This document shows, piece after piece, positions 6,207 to 43,013 of a stretch of DNA of 43,013 nucleotides. A model generated the notes under the pieces. It made no database searches. It had not been told where the DNA came from and saw nothing but the letters and a program-made list of their open reading frames with translations. Source of the DNA: Candidatus Lambdaproteobacteria bacterium (GTDB lineage: Bacteria; SAR324; JACQKK01); assembly GCA_016199125.1 (NCBI GenBank), contig JACQHH010000011.1:1-43013 (forward strand), in the 5' to 3' direction. Every line of letters starts with the position of its first letter. The first letter of the stretch is position 1. The translations under genes were made by a program, and so were the position numbers.

Positions 6207-6848
6207 ATGAGCGAGCCGGTGAAGATCCAGGTGTTTTCCGATTACGTCTGACCGTGGTGCTACCTCAGTACCGGGCGTATTGAGAAATTGCAGCGGGAAT
6301 ACGACATCGAAATCGAATGGGTGCACTTTCCCCTGCACCCGGAAACCCCGCAGGAAGGCGTGACGCTGGAGGCGCTGTTTGCCGGGCGCGACTACGACAT
6401 CGCGGCGGCGCAGCAGCGCATGCAGGGCCTGATGCAGCAGGAGGGCCTGCCCTACAGCGCGCGCAACATGACCTACAACAGCCGCCTGGCGCAGGAACTG
6501 GGCAAGTGGGCCGACAGCATCGGCCGGGGCGAGGCGCTGCACGACGCGCTGTTCCGCGCGTTCTTCGTGGATCTGGTCAACCTGGCCGAGCCGGACAACC
6601 TGCTCAGGATCGCGGCGTCCGTGGGACTGCCCGTGGACCAGGCGCGCGAGGTGCTGGAACAACGCACCTTCAAGGAGCAGGTCAACCGCGATTGGGCGCT
6701 CTCCATGCAACTGGGGATCACCGGCGTGCCCACCTTCGTGGCCGGCGGCTACAAGGTGGTGGGCGCCCAGCCCTACGAGGTGCTGCAGCAACTCATGCAG
6801 GCCGCCGAGGCGCGCCGGCGCGACGCCCCGGCCGGCGACGGCGAGTGA
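6207..6848 (+). CDS. DsbA/FrnE-like thiol:disulfide oxidoreductase with in-frame TGA (6249-6251) at the first redox Cys; probable selenoprotein (U-P-W-C)
   Basis: ATG 6207 with GAGGA RBS 6 nt upstream. Translation is MSEPVKIQVFSDYV-TGA-PWCYLSTGRIEKLQREYDIEIEWVHFPLHPE..., in the same frame as track ORF 6288..6848. FSDxxCPWCY is the canonical DsbA/FrnE N-terminal active site. C-terminal GITGVPTFV is the cis-Pro loop. Confidence 0.7.
6264..6284 (+). promoter_or_regulatory. candidate bacterial SECIS hairpin for the TGA at 6249
   Basis: CUCAGUAC/GUAUUGAG forms an 8-bp stem (one G-U pair) with apical loop CGGGC. The stem starts 12 nt after the TGA and the loop starts 23 nt from the U of UGA. Confidence 0.5.
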
Positions 6849-6897
6849 GCGCGCGGCCAGGGACGCCGGGGCGTCACCCCCTCGGGCGGCCGAGGCG

Positions 6898-7839
6898 CTA
6901 GCGCGTCATGCCCGCGATGGCCAGGGGGGCGGCTTTGCGGCGCGCCGCATAGGTGCGCGCCTGCTCGGCGATGTCGAAGCCGGCCAGGCGGTTCCACCCT
7001 TGCATCAGCTCCCGCGTGACAGGCCCCGGGCGCTCTGCGCCGATGGGCTGCCCATTGAGCGATCCCACCGGCATCAGGCAATAGCTGGTGGTGGTGACGA
7101 AGGCCTCGTCGGCCGTGTGCAGGTCATAGGGCTGCAGGCGCCGCTCGCTCAGCGGCAGTCCCGTCTCGCGGATCAGCTCCAGCGTGGTGTTGCGCGTGAC
7201 CCCTTCCAGGATCGCCCGCGCCTCGGGCGTGGCGATGCGCCCGCCCTTGACCACGAAGATGTTGCCGTAGAGCACCTCGGCCAAGTCGCCGTGCTCGTCC
7301 AGCAGCAGCCCCAGGGCCTTGGAGTTGATGGTCTTGGCCTCGATGTCCGCCAGCACCAGGTGCATGCGGCTCACGCACTTCACCTTGGGGTCCAGCCCGC
7401 CGGAGGCGCTGGCGCGCACGCTGGGGATCACCAGCGGCACGCCCTGGGTGTAGTGCTCCGCCACGCGCTCGAAGAGCAGCGGCTCCATGATCACGCTGGC
7501 AAAGCCCGGCCCAGGGGCCGTGGGCGGGCCGCCGCCGCGGCTGATGGTCTGCGTGACCCAGAAATCGCCGTATTCCTCCACCAGGGGCTGGTTGCGGGCC
7601 ACAGTCTCCTCGGTGATGCGCCCCAGCTCTTGCATGCTCAGGCCGGGCGCGATTCGCGTGTAGGCCAGCGAGCGCGCCAGGCGCTCCAGGTGCTGCGTCA
7701 GGCGGAACACCCGGCCGCCGAAGGTGCGCTCCGTGTCGAACACGGCGTCGCCCAGGCGGTAGCCCCGCTGGTTGAGCGGCATCATGGCCTTGCTGGCCGG
7801 CACGAATTCCCCGTTGACCCAGTACGTGATCTCTTGCAT
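6898..7839 (-). CDS. PLP fold-type IV aminotransferase (branched-chain amino acid / D-amino acid aminotransferase family)
   Basis: 313 aa. Pattern MQEITYWVNGEFVPASKAMMPLNQRGYRLGDAVFDTERTF...VKCVSRMHLVLADIEA...GNIFVVKGGRIATP...ILEGVTRNTTLEL is typical of class IV aminotransferases. Confidence 0.85.
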   Translation of the reverse strand: MQEITYWVNGEFVPASKAMMPLNQRGYRLGDAVFDTERTFGGRVFRLTQHLERLARSLAYTRIAPGLSMQELGRITEETVARNQPLVEEYGDFWVTQTISRGGGPPTAPGPGFASVIMEPLLFERVAEHYTQGVPLVIPSVRASASGGLDPKVKCVSRMHLVLADIEAKTINSKALGLLLDEHGDLAEVLYGNIFVVKGGRIATPEARAILEGVTRNTTLELIRETGLPLSERRLQPYDLHTADEAFVTTTSYCLMPVGSLNGQPIGAERPGPVTRELMQGWNRLAGFDIAEQARTYAARRKAAPLAIAGMTR

Positions 7840-8084
7840 GGCGCGGCATCCTCAATGGTGGTCGCAAAGTTGGGCGTCGCCCATGCCATAGCATATTTGA
7901 CGCCGCGGCGCGCCGGGCGGCATGCGTGTCGCTGTGCGACGCCCGTCGATTCCACCCCGGCCCTGTGGTAGGGTGCCTGGGCGACGGCCTCCCCGCCGCA
8001 TATTGTTCATCGCACGGTGACGCGACACAGTGCCGGTGCACCGCGACGTGCCGCGTGCGATGTCACCCCCCAACGGATGTCCCC

Positions 8085-9422
8085 ATGGCTGGCGGACGCT
8101 ACCCCGATCCCGATTCGCGCTCGGCGCAGCTTCACCGGCGCGCCCAGCAGGTGCTGCCCGGGGGCAACAGCCGGCTCACCGTGTCCATGTCGCCCTATCC
8201 GGTCTATGCCCGGCAAGGCGCCGGCTTCCGCCTGGTGGACGAGGACGGCGTGGAGCGCATCGACTTCTACAACAACGCCACCTCGCTGATCCATGGCCAC
8301 GCGCACCCGGCCATCGTGGAGGCCGTCACGGCGCAGATCGCGCGCGGCACGGCCTTCGCCCATCCCACCGAGGCGGAGATCGCCCTGGCCGAACTGCTCT
8401 GCGCGCGGGCGCCGGGCTTCGAACAGGTGCGCTTCTGCAACTCGGGCACGGAGGCGGTGATGAACGCCATCAAGGCGGCGCGGGCCTTCACGGGCCGCCC
8501 GCGCATCGCCAAGTGCGAGGGAGTCTACCACGGCAGCTACGACCCGGTGGAGGTGAGCCTGGATTCCCCGCCGTCGGCCTGGGGCGTGCCCGATCCGCTG
8601 CCGGTCGCCTACGCCCGGGGCACGCCGCCCGGCGTGCTGCAGGGCGTGGTGGTGCTGCCCTTCAATGACACCGAACGCAGCCGGGCCCTGCTGGAGGCCG
8701 CGGCCGGGGAGCTGGCCGCCGTGGTGATCGACCTGCTGCCCAGCCGCCTGGGCATGGAGCTGGCCTCGCCGGAGTTCCTGGCCATGCTGCGCGAAGTGAC
8801 GCGGCGCCACGGCATCGTGCTCATCGTCGACGAGGTGATCAGCTTCCGTTCGGGGCCCACGGGCCTGCAGGGGGTGCTGGGCGTGCAGCCCGACCTGACG
8901 GCGCTGGGCAAGATCATCGGCGGCGGCTTTCCCGTGGGTGCCGTGGCCGGGCGGCGCGAGATCATGGCCATGTTCGATGCCGGAGCGGGCAAGGCCCCCC
9001 TGCCTCATGCGGGCACTTACAACGGCAATCCGGTGACCATGGTGGCCGGGCGCGCGGCCATGGAACTGCTCACGCCCGACGCCTTCGCGGCCCTCAACGC
9101 CCTGGGGGAGCACACGCGCGCGCTGCTGGAGGCGGTGCTGCGGGAAACCGGCACACCCGGCGCCGCCGCGGGGGTGGGGTCGCTGTTCATGCTGCGCCTG
9201 GGCGCTGCGCCGCCGGGCTACCGCAGCCAATACCCCACGCCGGAGCGGCAGGCACGCAAGCTGGCCCTGGCCCAACATCTGCTGGATCACGGCATCGCCA
9301 TGAATCCCTCGCTGATGGGCGCCATCTCCACGCCCATGACCCCCGCCCAGCCGGCGGCCCTCGCGGCGGCTGTGCGCAGCGGGCTGGCTCAGGCGGCGGC
9401 CCAGGCCCTGCCCCTGCCTTAG
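8085..9422 (+). CDS. class III aminotransferase, glutamate-1-semialdehyde 2,1-aminomutase-like
   Basis: Starts MAGGRYPD... Motifs LPGGNSR, FCNSGTEAVMNAIKAARAFTGR, LIVDEVISFR and LGKIIGGGFPVGA (PLP-binding Lys). Sequence upstream of 8085 in the track ORF looks non-coding. Confidence 0.85.
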   Translation: MAGGRYPDPDSRSAQLHRRAQQVLPGGNSRLTVSMSPYPVYARQGAGFRLVDEDGVERIDFYNNATSLIHGHAHPAIVEAVTAQIARGTAFAHPTEAEIALAELLCARAPGFEQVRFCNSGTEAVMNAIKAARAFTGRPRIAKCEGVYHGSYDPVEVSLDSPPSAWGVPDPLPVAYARGTPPGVLQGVVVLPFNDTERSRALLEAAAGELAAVVIDLLPSRLGMELASPEFLAMLREVTRRHGIVLIVDEVISFRSGPTGLQGVLGVQPDLTALGKIIGGGFPVGAVAGRREIMAMFDAGAGKAPLPHAGTYNGNPVTMVAGRAAMELLTPDAFAALNALGEHTRALLEAVLRETGTPGAAAGVGSLFMLRLGAAPPGYRSQYPTPERQARKLALAQHLLDHGIAMNPSLMGAISTPMTPAQPAALAAAVRSGLAQAAAQALPLP

Positions 9423-11372: not shown

Positions 11373-12146
11373 TCATTTCGACCAGTCCGGAATCTGCTTG
11401 GCCTTGAAGGCGGCCATGCCCTGCTGCCCTTCGGGTCCCTCGAACTGGGCCTTGGCCACGGCGCTGGCGGCGCGCAGGCTGTCGGCGAAGCCCATGTGCG
11501 GCACGTCACGCAGAAAGCGCTTGGCCTGGGCGATGGCCCCCGGCCCGCAGGCGGCGATATTGTCCAGGGTCTCCTGCACGCCCGCGTCAAGCCCCTGCGG
11601 CGGCACGACGCGATGCACCAGGTGCACGGCCAGCGCCTTGGACGCGTCGAGCGTCTCGCCAGTGAGGATCATCTGCTTGCCGGAGCCCAGCAACTGCTTG
11701 TGCGCGAACAGCACGCAGATATAGGCCGGCACCAGGCCGTAGCGCACCTCGGTGAGCGTGAAGCGCGCCGTCTCCACCGCCACCGCCACGTCGCAGGCGG
11801 CCACCATGGTCACGCCGCCGCCGTAGCAGTTGCCCTGCACGCGCCCGATGATGGGCTTGGAGGCGTTCCACATGACCTCCATCAACTCGGCGAAGGGCGC
11901 CTGGTCGGTGGGCCGCGCCCCGCCGAAGGTGCGTCCACCGCCGCCCTTCAGGTCAGCCCCCGCGCAGAAGGTGGGTCCCGTGCCGGTGAGCACGATGGCG
12001 CGCACCGCCGGGTCGCCATCGGCGCGCCGCATGCCCTCGGTGAGCGCCTCGGTCATGCCCAGGTTGAGCGTGTTGTGATTCTGGGGCGCTTGCAGCGTGA
12101 TCCACGCGGCCTGCGCGCGAAGCTCGTAACCGATGTGCTCATTCAT
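11373..12146 (-). CDS. enoyl-CoA hydratase/isomerase (crotonase) family protein
   Basis: 257 aa. VRAIVLTGTGPTFCAGADLKGG oxyanion-hole motif and GRVQGNCYGGGVTMVAACD. Confidence 0.9.
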   Translation of the reverse strand: MNEHIGYELRAQAAWITLQAPQNHNTLNLGMTEALTEGMRRADGDPAVRAIVLTGTGPTFCAGADLKGGGGRTFGGARPTDQAPFAELMEVMWNASKPIIGRVQGNCYGGGVTMVAACDVAVAVETARFTLTEVRYGLVPAYICVLFAHKQLLGSGKQMILTGETLDASKALAVHLVHRVVPPQGLDAGVQETLDNIAACGPGAIAQAKRFLRDVPHMGFADSLRAASAVAKAQFEGPEGQQGMAAFKAKQIPDWSK

Positions 12147-12236
12147 GGATGTTCCTGAGGATAAACGCGCGAAACGATGGGCCTTGCAGCGGGCCGCGGA
12201 CGCCCGGTGATCGCAGCCCGCCGGCAGCCGCAGCGC

Positions 12237-12608
12237 CTAATCGATGGGCATCTCGTGTTCTTCGCTGAGCCAGATGGGCGAGTTGGCCAGGTCGATGAAG
12301 TTCTTCTCATCGGCAAGCATTTCCTTGCCGGCGGCCTTGCCCTCGGGCGTGCTGAAGGCCTTGTTCATCTCCTCGCGGCTGGGCCACCACATCTCCGCCA
12401 CGCCATCGAAGCCCTGCGGCGCCTTGCGCGAGCCGCGCAGCACGTCGTTGATGCGGTCCTCCAGCGCGTGCAGTTGCACGTAGCGCGCAACGCGCATGGC
12501 CTTGGCATTCTTCCGCGCCAGCGCCGCGTGGTGCCCGTGCCAATAGCTGAAGAACTCCTCGCGGGAAAGCTGGGGCAGGCGGCGGATGCAAAACGTGAGC
12601 TTGATCAT
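12237..12608 (-). CDS. EthD domain protein
   Basis: Starts MIKLTFCIRRLPQLSREEFFSYWHGHHAAL... and continues ...GFDGVAEMWW..., which resembles the EthD family. The track ORF N-terminus (to 12686) lacks coding character. Confidence 0.7.
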   Translation of the reverse strand: MIKLTFCIRRLPQLSREEFFSYWHGHHAALARKNAKAMRVARYVQLHALEDRINDVLRGSRKAPQGFDGVAEMWWPSREEMNKAFSTPEGKAAGKEMLADEKNFIDLANSPIWLSEEHEMPID

Positions 12609-12740
12609 GCGCAATGTCTCCGGAAAGGCGGCGGGGCGCCGGCGGCTCGCCCGCCAGGGCTCAGGCGCGGGGCACAACCGGAGCATGGCCCGGGCGGCGT
12701 GCAGCGCGAGGCCCGCAAGCCGGGGCCTTGGCGCCCGCGT

Positions 12741-13217
12741 TCAGCCGCCGTAGTTGGCGCCGATTTCCTTGAGCGTGAGAATGTCCGCGGCGCCGTGCAG
12801 CCGGGCCTCGGTGACCTCGCCCACGAACACGGAATGGTCGCCGCGCTCCACGATCTCGTGGATGGTGCCGGCCACGTAGCCGGCCGCGGCGGTGAGCACG
12901 GGACTGCCGTTGCCCGCCAGGGCAAACTCGAACCCGCCGATCATGTTGCCCTGCGGGGCCACGGGCTTGAAGAAGGCATAGGCCATGTCCTTCTGGCCGC
13001 TCTTGAGCATGCTCAAGGCGAATTGGCGGGTGGCCTTGAGCAGAGCGTGTCCGCCCGCATCGGCCTTGACGCCCAGCACCACCAGCGGCGGCGCGAAGGA
13101 CGCCTGGGTGACCCAGTTGATGGTGGCCATGCTCATCGCCTCGCCCTGCTTGGCGCCGAGCACGTACAGGCCATAGGGAATCATGCGCAGCACAGTCTTC
13201 TTTGCCGCCTCGTCCAT
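12741..13217 (-). CDS. flavin reductase (FMN-binding split-barrel) family protein
   Basis: MDEAAKKTVLRMIPYGLYVLGAKQGEAMSMATINWVTQASFAPPLVVLGV...GDHSVFVGEV fits the flavin reductase-like domain pattern. Only the last 158 codons of the 499-aa track ORF are used. Confidence 0.85.
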   Translation of the reverse strand: MDEAAKKTVLRMIPYGLYVLGAKQGEAMSMATINWVTQASFAPPLVVLGVKADAGGHALLKATRQFALSMLKSGQKDMAYAFFKPVAPQGNMIGGFEFALAGNGSPVLTAAAGYVAGTIHEIVERGDHSVFVGEVTEARLHGAADILTLKEIGANYGG

Positions 13218-39583: not shown

Positions 39584-42091
39584 CTACCAGATGGCCTCGG
39601 CCGCGCGCAGGCGGGCCAGTTCCGCATCGTCCAGGGCCAGCACCTCGCGCAGCACTTCGTCGGTGTGCTCGCCCATCAACGGGGCGCGGGCGCGCACCCC
39701 GTTGGGTCCGCGCGTGAGGCGCCAGGGGATGCCCGTGTGCGTGCGCACCCCCACCTCGGGATGGGGCAGCCGGCTGAAGAAGCCGCGGGCGTGCAAGTGC
39801 GGATTTTCCGCCAGCTCGCCCGTGTCGATCACCGGGAAGGACGGCACGCCGTGGGATTGCAGCACTTCGGTGGCCTCCCAGCGATCCTGGGTGACCGTCC
39901 ACGTGCTGACGATCTCCTCCAGGGCGCGCTCGTTGGCCTTGCGCGCCGTGGCGGTGGCAAAGCGCGCATCGCCGGCCAGGTCCGCGCGGCCCAGCGCCCG
40001 GCACAGGCCCTGCCATTGCGCCTCGTCGGTCACGGCGATGGAGACCCAGGCGTCGTCGCCAACGCAGCGGAAGCAGTTGTGCGGCGCGTACAGCGGGTCG
40101 CGGTTGCCCAGGTAGGGATAGGGCGGATGCCCCAGCGCCGCATTGATCCAGCCTTCGAAGGCGTTGTTGATCATGGACTCCCACAGGGAGACGTCCACGA
40201 TCTGCCCGCCCCCGTGACGCTGGCGGGCCACCAGGGAAGCCAGCACACCATAGGCGGCGTAGATGCCGGCATTGGGGTCGCCATAGCCGGTGGCCGCGTA
40301 CTGGGGCGGCTCGCTGCCCTGGGGTTCGGCCACCAGCCCGGCAAAGGGCACGACCGTGGGGCCGTAGGCGATGTAGTCCTTGAGCGGGCCGGATTGGCCG
40401 AAGCCGGAGACCGTGACCACGATCATGTTGGGGTTGATGCGCCGCAGCTCCTGCGCACCCAGCCCGAAGCGCTCCATGACCCCCGTGGAAAAGTTGCTCG
40501 CCGCCACGTCGCACACCGCCGCCAGGCGCTTGATCAGCGCCAGGCCCTCGGGGTGCTTGATGTCGATCTGCACGCTCTTCTTGGACTGGGCGTACTCGTT
40601 GAAGAAGCCGCCGCGGTTCAGCCCGCCTTCCATGCCTTCGGGATAGATGGCGAAGCGGCGTGTGAAGTCGGGCCGCAGGGGCGATTCGATCTTGATCACC
40701 TCGGCGCCCAGGTGCGCCATCTGCTCGGTGCAGTGCGGCCCGGCCCAGTACCAGGTCAGATCGAGCACGCGCACACCTTGCAGCGGCAGCCGCGCCGAGC
40801 CGTTGCCCGCCGCGCCATTGCCGGCGACCGGACGCTCCTTGGCCGTGGCCGCGGCTTGCTGGCCCGTTTTGGCCGCTGCGGCTTGCCGGCCCGCTTTGGC
40901 CCCCCGGCCGGCGCCGGCGGCCTGCGTGCCGTTGCGCGCGAGCAGACGCGGGAGTTCGGCCCGAGCCTCGTCCAGCCGCGGGGCCGGCAGGCGCACGTCC
41001 CACCAGCGGTGCTGCAGCACGAAGGGCGGGCCGGGCATGGGAATCTCCCCCGCCACCGGATGCTGCTGGCGATGCACAAAGCCGCGGGCCAGCAGATGCG
41101 CGTTCTCGAACAGGTCCGCCGGCCGGTAGAGCATGGTCGCGCAGATGTGGTTCTGCTGCAGGGCATGGAACAGCTCCTCGGCGCGCCACGTGCTCGTCCA
41201 GGCTTCCAGGAGGGCGTTCATCTCCTCCACGTGCGCGCCGCGGTCCCAGCCGGTGCGGAAGCGCTCGGCCTTGGCCCACTCCGGGTCGCCCATCATGCCC
41301 ACCAGGCGCTGCCACTGGTCTTCCTCCGGACAGACAATGAACAGGTAGCCGTCCTGGCAGCGGTAATATTGCACCGGGGCGAACATGCGCGGCTTGTAGC
41401 GGTTGATCACGCGCCCGGCGTAGGTGAATTCCACGAAGTTCGGGCCGTGGAAAGAAGCATTGACCGAGTGCACCGACAGGTCGATGTGCTCACCCTGCCC
41501 GTGCTCCCGCGCGCCGTAGTGGGCGCCCAAAGCCGCCACCGCCCCGTAGACGCCCCCCTGGATGTCCGCCTGGTGCCCGAAGAACTTCACCGGCGGCTGG
41601 CCCTTGATGTCGATGGGATCGGCGAACACCCAGCTCAGCCCGCTGGCGTGGAACAGGTTGAGGTCCACCGCCGCGAAATCCTTGTAGGGGCCGGTGAGGC
41701 CATAGGGCGTGATGCTGAGCACGACCAGGCGCCGATTGAGCGCCGCAAAGCGCTCGTAGTCCAGGCGCAGGCGCGTCATCTCGCGGGGAATGAAATTGTG
41801 CAGCAGAATGTCGGCCTGCGCCGCCAGCTCGTCCAGGGCGCGCTGGCCCGCGGCGGTCTCCAGGTCCAGCACCACGGAGCGCTTGTTGGCGTTGAGCACC
41901 AGGAACAGGCCGCTGGCCTCGGGGTCGGGCTTGCCGTGGGGAAAGGGGCCCCGCTGGCGGGCCGCGTCGCCTGCGGGCGGCTCCACCTTGACCACGGTCG
42001 CGCCCAGGTCGGCCAGCAGCTTGCCCGCCGCCGGCGCCGAGACCCAGCCCCCCAGCTCCACCACGTTCAGTCCTTGCAAGCCACTTCCCAT
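39584..42091 (-). CDS. tandem-fused family III CoA-transferase (two CaiB/BaiF domains in one 835-aa chain)
   Basis: GGAGGTG RBS. N-half: GLNVVELGGWVSAPAAGKLLADLGATVVKVEPP...HQADIQGG. Ala/Gly/Gln-rich linker (~residues 385-435). C-half: VRVLDLTWYWAGPHCTEQMAHLGAEVIKIESP...GYGDPNAG. Both halves keep the Asp-containing motif. Confidence 0.85.
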   Translation of the reverse strand: MGSGLQGLNVVELGGWVSAPAAGKLLADLGATVVKVEPPAGDAARQRGPFPHGKPDPEASGLFLVLNANKRSVVLDLETAAGQRALDELAAQADILLHNFIPREMTRLRLDYERFAALNRRLVVLSITPYGLTGPYKDFAAVDLNLFHASGLSWVFADPIDIKGQPPVKFFGHQADIQGGVYGAVAALGAHYGAREHGQGEHIDLSVHSVNASFHGPNFVEFTYAGRVINRYKPRMFAPVQYYRCQDGYLFIVCPEEDQWQRLVGMMGDPEWAKAERFRTGWDRGAHVEEMNALLEAWTSTWRAEELFHALQQNHICATMLYRPADLFENAHLLARGFVHRQQHPVAGEIPMPGPPFVLQHRWWDVRLPAPRLDEARAELPRLLARNGTQAAGAGRGAKAGRQAAAAKTGQQAAATAKERPVAGNGAAGNGSARLPLQGVRVLDLTWYWAGPHCTEQMAHLGAEVIKIESPLRPDFTRRFAIYPEGMEGGLNRGGFFNEYAQSKKSVQIDIKHPEGLALIKRLAAVCDVAASNFSTGVMERFGLGAQELRRINPNMIVVTVSGFGQSGPLKDYIAYGPTVVPFAGLVAEPQGSEPPQYAATGYGDPNAGIYAAYGVLASLVARQRHGGGQIVDVSLWESMINNAFEGWINAALGHPPYPYLGNRDPLYAPHNCFRCVGDDAWVSIAVTDEAQWQGLCRALGRADLAGDARFATATARKANERALEEIVSTWTVTQDRWEATEVLQSHGVPSFPVIDTGELAENPHLHARGFFSRLPHPEVGVRTHTGIPWRLTRGPNGVRARAPLMGEHTDEVLREVLALDDAELARLRAAEAIW

Positions 42092-42370
42092 CGCACCTCC
42101 AACGCCTGCGCGTGACCGGCGGAAACCGGCCGCGCGGGCCTCTGATTGACTCCCCCCAATCTTTTTATTGAGCGGGTTTGCGGCCCCGCTTGTCAAGCAT
42201 GGAATGCCCTCAAGCGCGCAAATGCGGCAGAATTGCACGGCTTTGCAGGGGCCCGCGGCGCTCACGTTGCCGGGTGGCGCCGAGGGTTCAGTTTCCGCGC
42301 GGCGATGTGCTATGTACATCCATCACTTGACGAGACTGAGGCACAGGCAACCCACCCCCCGGAGAGCATC

Positions 42371-43013
42371 ATGGGCGCACAGGGCAACGAGGTCATCTAC
42401 GACGTGGTCTGGCCACGCGGCGAAAAATCCCTCACCGTCACGCAACTGGCCAAGCGGCTGGATTCCCTGGAAGGCAAGACCGTCGCGGAGCTGTGGGACT
42501 ACCTGTTCCGTGGCGACGAAATCTTTCCCATCCTGGAAGAGGAGCTGACCAAGCGCTACCCCGGCATCAAGTTCGTGCGCTACGACACCTTCGGCAGCAC
42601 CCACGGCGACGAGGAGCACGCCGTGCTGGCCGCGCTGCCGGCCCAGCTCAAGGAGCTGGGCGTGGATGCGGTAATCTCCGGCATGGCCTGCTGAGGGAGC
42701 TGTACGCCCGCCGTGCTGCGGGCAAGCGCCATTGCCGAAGGGGCCGGAGTGCCCACCGCCTCGCTGACCTGCGAGGGCTTTCTGGGCCAGGCGGCCACGA
42801 CCAGCTCGGGGCTGGGCATGCCCAACCTGCCCGTGGCCAAGGTGCCCGGGCACGTGGACGTGCAGACCCCCGAGGAGCTGCGGGCCAACGTGGTGGCCGT
42901 CACGCTGGATGCCGTGGTCAGCAACCTCACGGTGGATCCGGACGAGGTGCAGGCCGTCTCCGACCCGGGGCCCGGCGACATCGTGTTCCAGGGCACCTTC
43001 GAGGAGGTGATCA
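42371..43013 (+). CDS. C-U-G-S-C motif protein with in-frame TGA (42692-42694); probable selenoprotein of the 'UGSC' type; 3' end lies outside the window
   Basis: GGAGAG RBS then ATG 42371. ...GVDAVISGMAC-TGA-GSCTPAVLRASAIAEGAGVPTASLTCEGFLGQ...NLPVAKVPGHVDVQTPEEL.... The frame stays open for ~106 codons after the TGA up to base 43013, with the same GC3-rich codon usage. Confidence 0.7.
42706..42723 (+). promoter_or_regulatory. candidate bacterial SECIS hairpin for the TGA at 42692
   Basis: GCCCGC/GCGGGC forms a perfect 6-bp G-C-rich stem with loop CGUGCU. The stem starts 11 nt after the TGA and the loop starts 20 nt from the U of UGA. Confidence 0.55.

Follow-up and report, generated by a model that had tools for sequence, protein, structure and literature searches.

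The last 643 bases of the window, a 43,013 bp stretch of DNA from a Candidatus Lambdaproteobacteria bacterium (contig JACQHH010000011.1, positions 1 to 43,013), very probably hold the start of a selenoprotein gene. The gene was classed as a long form of the UGSC family with a full length of about 575 codons, in which an in-frame UGA would be read as selenocysteine (Sec, U). The Sec assignment of this codon, taken separately, carries slightly more confidence still. The UGA, at 42692..42694 on the plus strand, was shown by comparison with orthologs not to be a stop codon. The gene lies on the plus strand at 42371..43013 and is cut by the end of the window, which contains 214 of its approximately 575 codons. 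It is a new member of an already catalogued, uncharacterised selenoprotein family; the family itself is not new.

Reading frame, family and orthologs

The gene starts with the ATG at 42371..42373. A Shine-Dalgarno-like sequence, GGAGAG (42361..42366, plus strand), is seen directly in the DNA 4 nt 5' of this ATG, and the N-terminus aligns with the N-termini of homologs. The frame reads MGAQGNEVIYDVVWPRG...GVDAVISGMAC up to the TGA. Beyond it the frame continues as GSCTPAVLRASAIAEGAGVPTASLTCEGFLGQ... for 106 further codons to position 43012 with zero stops. The GC content at third codon positions (GC3) of these codons is 0.92, the same as that of coding sequence elsewhere in the 68% GC window. 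The TGA is the second codon of TGC TGA GGG AGC TGT (42689..42703, plus strand). These codons would encode a C-U-G-S-C redox motif, which was invariant in 75 aligned orthologs. An in-frame TGA within C-U-G-S-C, with an open frame beyond it, had been proposed in an earlier sequence-only reading of the window, and the stop-free, GC3-rich codons bore this out.

For the profile searches the read-through protein was written with C in place of U. It matched Pfam PF24696 (UGSC family) with 107.2 bits (cutoff 25). Residues 11-187 aligned to profile positions 1-171 of 172, so that the match spans the TGA. NF041046 was the sole NCBIfam match, at 54.4 bits. The membership in the UGSC family that had been suggested from the motif was supported by these two profiles. 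Some long-form proteins of this kind are also named 'UGSC family (seleno)protein' by the National Center for Biotechnology Information. No Pfam or NCBIfam match was found past residue 190. All complete orthologs have a C-terminal domain of ~380 amino acids (aa), of which the window covers the first residues. One Cys of this domain is invariant in the orthologs (NGVMAGCRPEY).

A scan of species-representative genomes found more than 546 relatives, and codons were counted in the 80 best loci and two others. TGA was present at the Sec position in all 83 gene copies, which came from 81 loci. The lineages with TGA included Alpha- and Betaproteobacteria, Methylomirabilota/Rokubacteria, Acidimicrobiia, Dehalococcoidia and Myxococcota, among others. 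Read-through open reading frames of the orthologs were 565-610 aa long with a single Sec, and about 470 codons followed the TGA in all complete copies. The sequence-only reading had named homologs ending at this position, or a post-TGA sequence dissimilar from any homolog, as grounds for dropping the proposal. Homologs were found to run on past the TGA position, and the post-TGA sequence was conserved in orthologs. Continuous homologs with Cys at the site were also found. P0242 and P0247 have S-C-G-T-C and P0267 has A-C-G-G-C. The Cys homologs and the Sec forms are a classical Sec/Cys pair.

The closest relatives in species-representative genomes were 70-72% identical over the first 214 residues. 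A short N-terminal fragment from a metagenome, P0004, was 80% identical to the window protein. An exact 45-mer from the window end had no match in metagenome contigs, and a megablast of the last 7 kb had no match among plasmids. With tblastn against plasmids, relatives were found at 28-30% identity only. The exact-sequence look-up of three window proteins found none on record.

Gene calls of the homologs were almost all split at the TGA. The N-terminal fragments were ~107-125 aa long and ended in ...GM[AG]C. The C-terminal fragments were ~465 aa long and started at the Leu or Met of (M/V)LRAS. Public gene callers make this split in thousands of records, and TGA is a normal stop in the source genome. 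Both points would suit a genuine stop between two genes, one for a 107-aa protein and one for a ~468-aa protein starting at Leu/Met116. This arrangement is very improbable. Seven codons (G-S-C-T-P-A-V) separate the TGA from the supposed restart. They stay in frame without change in 75 sequences, and the supposed restart in the window is CTG (Leu116), which is outside the recognised ATG/GTG/TTG starts. The Cys homologs are single continuous proteins and the PF24696 match, over residues 11-187, crosses the TGA. The AlphaFold2 (AF2) model, described below, also has one compact domain over the site.

TGA is one base change from TGC or TGT, and some family members have Cys. A Cys codon turned into TGA by a sequencing error or by an inactivating mutation, which would make the gene a pseudogene, has next to no probability given the same TGA in 83 of 83 independent copies from many phyla and the open GC3-rich frame past it. 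Database translations of three homologs show other residues at the Sec codon, namely Gly in P0003 (AGGAC), Arg in P0001 (ARRGSC) and Leu in P0005 (ACLGSC). These residues probably reflect the translation of the records, not real substitutions.

The UGSC gene and thousands of its public relatives are annotated as two 'hypothetical proteins' divided at the Sec codon, and recognising the read-through restores a protein of ~575 aa.

The hairpin and selenocysteine decoding

A candidate Sec insertion sequence (SECIS) hairpin was found at 42706..42723 on the plus strand. GCCCGC (42706-42711) pairs perfectly with GCGGGC (42718-42723), and the apical loop is CGUGCU (42712-42717). The stem begins 11 nt after the TGA, and the sequence agreed with the earlier description of a 6-bp stem with this loop at this distance. 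The isolated hairpin has a folding energy of -11.2 kcal/mol. A perfect 6-bp hairpin within 5-20 nt follows ~4% of all TGA triplets in the 68% GC window. The wider hairpin region folded no better than shuffles (z-scores +1.9 and -0.07), a comparison that is uninformative in DNA of 68% GC. Taken alone, the hairpin is not beyond chance. The observation as a whole is far above chance because the TGA is conserved in 83/83 copies, the frame is open for ~470 codons past it in all complete copies and the hairpin codons show zero synonymous variation.

The last point came from a codon alignment of 75 orthologs in which entropy was calculated at third codon positions. Third-position entropy was zero at the P-A-V-L-R codons (CCC GCC GTG YTG CGG), which make up most of the stem and the loop. 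Over the whole gene there were 101 near-invariant four-fold columns with a median entropy of 1.31 bits, and P113, A114 and V115 were the only ones with zero third-base entropy. Of the 51 six-fold columns, only L116 and R117 had no third-position variation. Synonymous variation was free in the invariant Gly, Ala and Ser codons that flank the hairpin. Judged by this codon alignment, the hairpin is under selection at the RNA level. The inner 5 bp of the stem were identical in 82 of 82 distinct sequences and the sixth pair was present in 76 of 82. In the two Cys-form genes examined, the codons at the hairpin site differ (CCG, GTC/ATC), which is a weak control given n = 2.

The bacterial SECIS (bSECIS) model specifies a loop of 3-9 nt, an upper stem of 4-16 bp, a G in the first two loop positions, 16-37 nt from UGA to loop and a minimum free energy of -7.5 kcal/mol or lower (PMC13188914). 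The hairpin agreed with the model in every respect: its loop is 6 nt and its stem 6 bp long, a U follows the G at loop position 2, the loop is 17 nt away from the UGA and the folding energy is -11.2 kcal/mol. As in the Escherichia coli fdhF type and the bSECIS consensus (PMC13188914, Fig. 2A), it lies inside the coding region just past the UGA. It also shares with the consensus the small apical loop, the G then U near the 5' side, the UGA-to-loop distance and a minimum free energy below -7.5 kcal/mol. The earlier claim of a SECIS-like hairpin was supported both by these published values and by the frozen synonymous sites. A search of Rfam at a permissive threshold gave chance-level matches only, and the hairpin matches no Rfam family. 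It differs from the fdhF-type SECIS in its stem of just 6 bp with a weak, variable lower extension and in its loop, CGUGYU. The loop of the fdhF SECIS is GGUC.

A second selenoprotein gene was predicted at 6207-6848 on the plus strand, with ATG at 6207, TGA at 6249-6251 and the stop at 6846-6848. It encodes a DsbA-like protein with a putative U-P-W-C site and was identified by ortholog comparison and Pfam DSBA. The context of the TGA is MSEPVKIQVFSDYV-U-PWCY..., which reads ...VFSDYV-U-PWCY.... The Pfam DSBA score rose from 87 to 126 bits on reading through the TGA, and the profile was completed including the CxxC site. Among 80 metagenomic orthologs the codon was TGA in 75 and TGC or TGT in five. 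The TGA forms keep CTCAGTACCGKGCGTATTGAG invariant, a hairpin with an 8-bp stem and the loop CGKGC that begins, with its stem, 20 nt after the UGA. This hairpin, CUCAGUAC-CGKGC-GUAUUGAG, is absent from the five Cys forms, in which the codons there are unrelated.

TGA terminates 11 of the 22 Pfam-supported genes of the window. It is thus a normal stop in the window and not a reassigned codon. The other stops in these genes were TAG in ten and TAA in one, and the TAG share (10/22) appears high for a 68% GC genome. The host probably decodes Sec, because two independent Sec/Cys-paired genes with SECIS hairpins were predicted in one 43-kb window.

The UGA could also be read through without Sec, with near-cognate or suppressor decoding inserting Trp, Cys or Gly and the hairpin acting as a generic stimulator of read-through. 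The other residues at this codon in some database translations (P0003, P0005) would fit such decoding, though they are probably effects of record translation as described above. Read-through of this kind is most improbable. Homologs pair the UGA with Cys at a U-x-x-C site typical of selenoproteins, and the loop size, the position of the G and the spacing of the hairpin conform to the SelB-type bSECIS model. The family has long been recognised as a predicted selenoprotein, and the window has the DsbA-like gene as a second Sec/Cys-paired gene with its own SECIS.

Several points weigh against the reading of the gene as a UGSC-family selenoprotein with a SECIS. No selA, selB, selC or selD and no tRNA gene was found within the 43-kb window. 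The NF041046 score of 54.4 bits is below the equivalog cutoff of 125 for this 147-position model, and a full-length ortholog scored 53.3 bits. The window gene is a relative in a long-form subfamily and not an equivalog of the seed proteins. No compensatory covariation was found in the hairpin, whose five inner pairs never vary in 82 sequences, and for this reason the RNA evidence is one of conservation and not covariation. A candidate lower stem is partly kept with one-sided changes only, and 139 of 500 shuffles reached the observed values. For an extended stem of 13 bp, covariation did not reach significance. GC-rich codons for P-A-x-x-R-A by their nature supply part of the pairing potential, and the Cys-form genes (n = 2) retain a 4-bp CCGG/CCGG remnant that is largely inherent in such GC-rich P-A..R-A codons.

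Predicted structure, partner genes and possible function

AF2 models were built for the Cys-form homologs P0242 (394 aa) and P0247 (518 aa) in place of the window protein, from alignments of 76 and 94 sequences, respectively. The mean predicted local distance difference test score was 85.4 for P0242 and 87.6 for P0247, with predicted template modelling (TM) scores of 0.85 and 0.86, respectively. In the model the UGSC domain consists of five alternating beta-alpha units and forms one compact domain across the Sec site. The Cys equivalent to U, Cys105, is in a loop between the strand 97-103 and the helix 108-121, and the second Cys begins the helix. As modelled, this is the standard geometry of a redox-active pair at a helix N-terminus. 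The alternating beta/alpha order suggests a Rossmann- or flavodoxin-like domain. Foldseek searches of the Protein Data Bank (PDB) with the UGSC domain gave weak matches only (E >= 3e-3, TM <= 0.26), to Rossmann- or flavodoxin-like proteins, namely azoreductase, phosphofructokinase and GT-B enzymes. A thioredoxin fold was considered and rejected, with no thioredoxin-fold protein among the 50 best matches listed for the Cys-form homolog model. The C-terminal domain had no meaningful PDB match by fold or by profile search.

Two recurrent partner genes, both directly downstream on the same strand, were found by de novo clustering of neighbours at 77 loci. The first, present in 30 of the 77 loci, encodes a paralog of the C-terminal domain alone (C-domain paralog). 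It is ~400 aa long with ~30% identity and shares the motifs W-x-D-G-L-P-x-V-P-P-T and N-x-V-M-A-G-C. It had no Pfam or NCBIfam match. Its gene was located at 11739-12959 in locus L004, 11750-12928 in L009, 11717-12898 in L027 and in 27 other loci, always on the same strand as the UGSC fusion; the window ends before the corresponding position.

A gene for a thioredoxin reductase (TrxR)-like flavoprotein of ~310 aa is co-directional and adjacent in 16 of the 77 Sec-form loci. The best NCBIfam match of the protein was TIGR01292 (thioredoxin-disulfide reductase), with 234-249 bits over the full model, which is below the equivalog cutoff. A CxxC is present. Copies include those at 11714-12649 in L072, 12902-13843 in L027, 12906-13835 in L013 and 5081-6004 in L083. 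The last is a Cys-form locus, that of the distant homolog P0267, where a Pyr_redox_2 gene of equal size shares 4 nt with the start of the UGSC-type gene.

The following mechanism is proposed for the long-form UGSC protein. As in the established bacterial pathway, SelB loaded with Sec-tRNA(Sec) would bind the hairpin while the ribosome is at the UGA. Sec would be inserted to give a Cys-Sec-Gly-Ser-Cys centre. In the modelled fold it would sit at the end of a beta-strand, just ahead of the helix that starts with the second Cys, and the U-x-x-C pair may cycle between selenol/thiol and selenenylsulfide. The protein would run on past the window into the ~380-aa domain without a known fold. The enzyme would be a thiol/selenol-dependent oxidoreductase, often working with the C-domain paralog and re-reduced by a dedicated TrxR-like flavoprotein using NAD(P)H. 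An oxidoreductase with a dedicated reductase is suggested because the C-domain paralog and the TrxR-like gene recur as neighbours. The TrxR-coupled oxidoreductase mechanism is the weakest step. Drawn from gene neighbourhoods, it has a little under an even chance of being correct. The long-form UGSC protein may tentatively be the catalytic subunit of an undescribed, widespread multi-component selenoenzyme, made up of the fusion, the C-domain paralog and the TrxR-like flavoprotein, for NAD(P)H-driven reduction in aerobic soil and aquatic bacteria; this wider proposal is possible but doubtful. Against the mechanism, the redox-partner model draws on a minority of the loci, the C-terminal domain and the downstream genes are beyond the window, and neither domain resembles a solved structure by PDB fold and profile searches.

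The gene next to the UGSC gene in the window, at 39584-42319 on the minus strand, encodes a protein of 911 aa in which two family III CoA-transferase domains lie in tandem (Pfam PF02515, 647 bits over two stretches). The two genes are divergent with 51 bp between their starts. With this gap their promoters must overlap or lie within coding sequence. Past the CoA-transferase the window contains genes for an EamA transporter, a 4HBT thioesterase, an acyl-CoA dehydrogenase and a hydrolase. The sequence-only reading had taken the CoA-transferase and acyl-CoA genes as a hint to function. This was not borne out: a family III CoA-transferase was present within 10 kb in just 17 of 82 related loci, with ~30% identity and at scattered positions. 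The other window neighbours, including EamA, the thioesterase and RidA, were essentially never shared among the 82 loci.

The same neighbours would suit a substrate-cleaving selenoprotein B like GrdB or PrdB, whose substrate would be CoA-linked or derived from an amino acid and which would act jointly with the neighbouring CoA-transferase and acyl-CoA genes. Such a role is unlikely. In its favour are the divergent tandem CoA-transferase 51 bp away and the acyl-CoA dehydrogenase and thioesterase genes nearby. A thioredoxin-reductase-type gene is part of the grd system loci and is also found at some UGSC loci. In addition, U-x-x-C is used by GrdB and PrdB (PMC2398784, Table 2), and the UGSC family resembles them as a U-x-x-C selenoprotein with a thioredoxin-reductase-type gene in some operons and a partner subunit encoded alongside. 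The sequence-only reading had put forward a comparison with the GrdB/PrdB profiles, and it yielded little. Ten UGSC-domain proteins had no match to the GRDB Pfam family (PF07355) even at E <= 10, and a single weak, sub-threshold NCBIfam PrdB match was found, for P0003 (E = 0.061). The CoA-transferase, near only 17 of 82 loci and at variable distance, also speaks against this role. Unlike GrdB/PrdB, the UGSC family occurs in aerobic soil and aquatic lineages, not in amino-acid-fermenting anaerobes, and no GrdA/GrdE/PrdA-type neighbours were seen. The thiol/selenol oxidoreductase reading is preferred.

Relation to the described UGSC family

The 'UGSC-containing protein' has been a predicted selenoprotein of unknown function since 2007 (Zhang & Gladyshev, PMC1976440). 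In the Global Ocean Sampling study the family was called 'likely Trx-like', a 'UGSC/Unknown_1' domain fusion was reported and UGSC proteins were among the most abundant predicted selenoproteins in environmental metagenomes (PMC2398784). The family was still uncharacterised in reviews of 2022 and 2026, in agreement with the earlier statement that its function is not established.

The window gene resembles the described family (PF24696, NF041046; PMC1976440, PMC2398784) in having U-G-S-C at the Sec position and a SECIS directly past the UGA. In this family Sec forms far outnumber Cys forms, and its members are abundant in environmental bacteria. Unlike the stand-alone UGSC-domain proteins, the window gene is a long form of ~575 aa with 54 bits on NF041046. 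The fold predicted here is Rossmann- or flavodoxin-like, in contrast to the 'likely Trx-like fold' suggested in 2008. The long form is similar to the UGSC/Unknown_1 fusion (PMC2398784, Fig. S1A), in which a large conserved domain comes after the UGSC domain; that domain contains conserved Cys and is also found as a separate protein. 'Unknown_1' may be the C-terminal domain of the long form, and the earlier description (2007-2008) probably includes the fusion to the large C-terminal domain.

The window adds no new principle, and the result is an ordinary one for selenoprotein specialists. The recurrent C-domain paralog and the TrxR-like reductase, together with the lack of a structural relative, are concrete leads for an abundant and long-unassigned family.

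At two of the related loci a second, divergent fusion of a UGSC-like domain and a C-domain was observed on the opposite strand, ~3 kb upstream (L008, ~6356-8100, minus strand; L010, ~6749-8500, minus strand). An in-frame TGA (GVGH-U-STC-APAV) is present in this second gene too, and its hairpin is a different one, with the apical loop GGUC 17 nt past the UGA.

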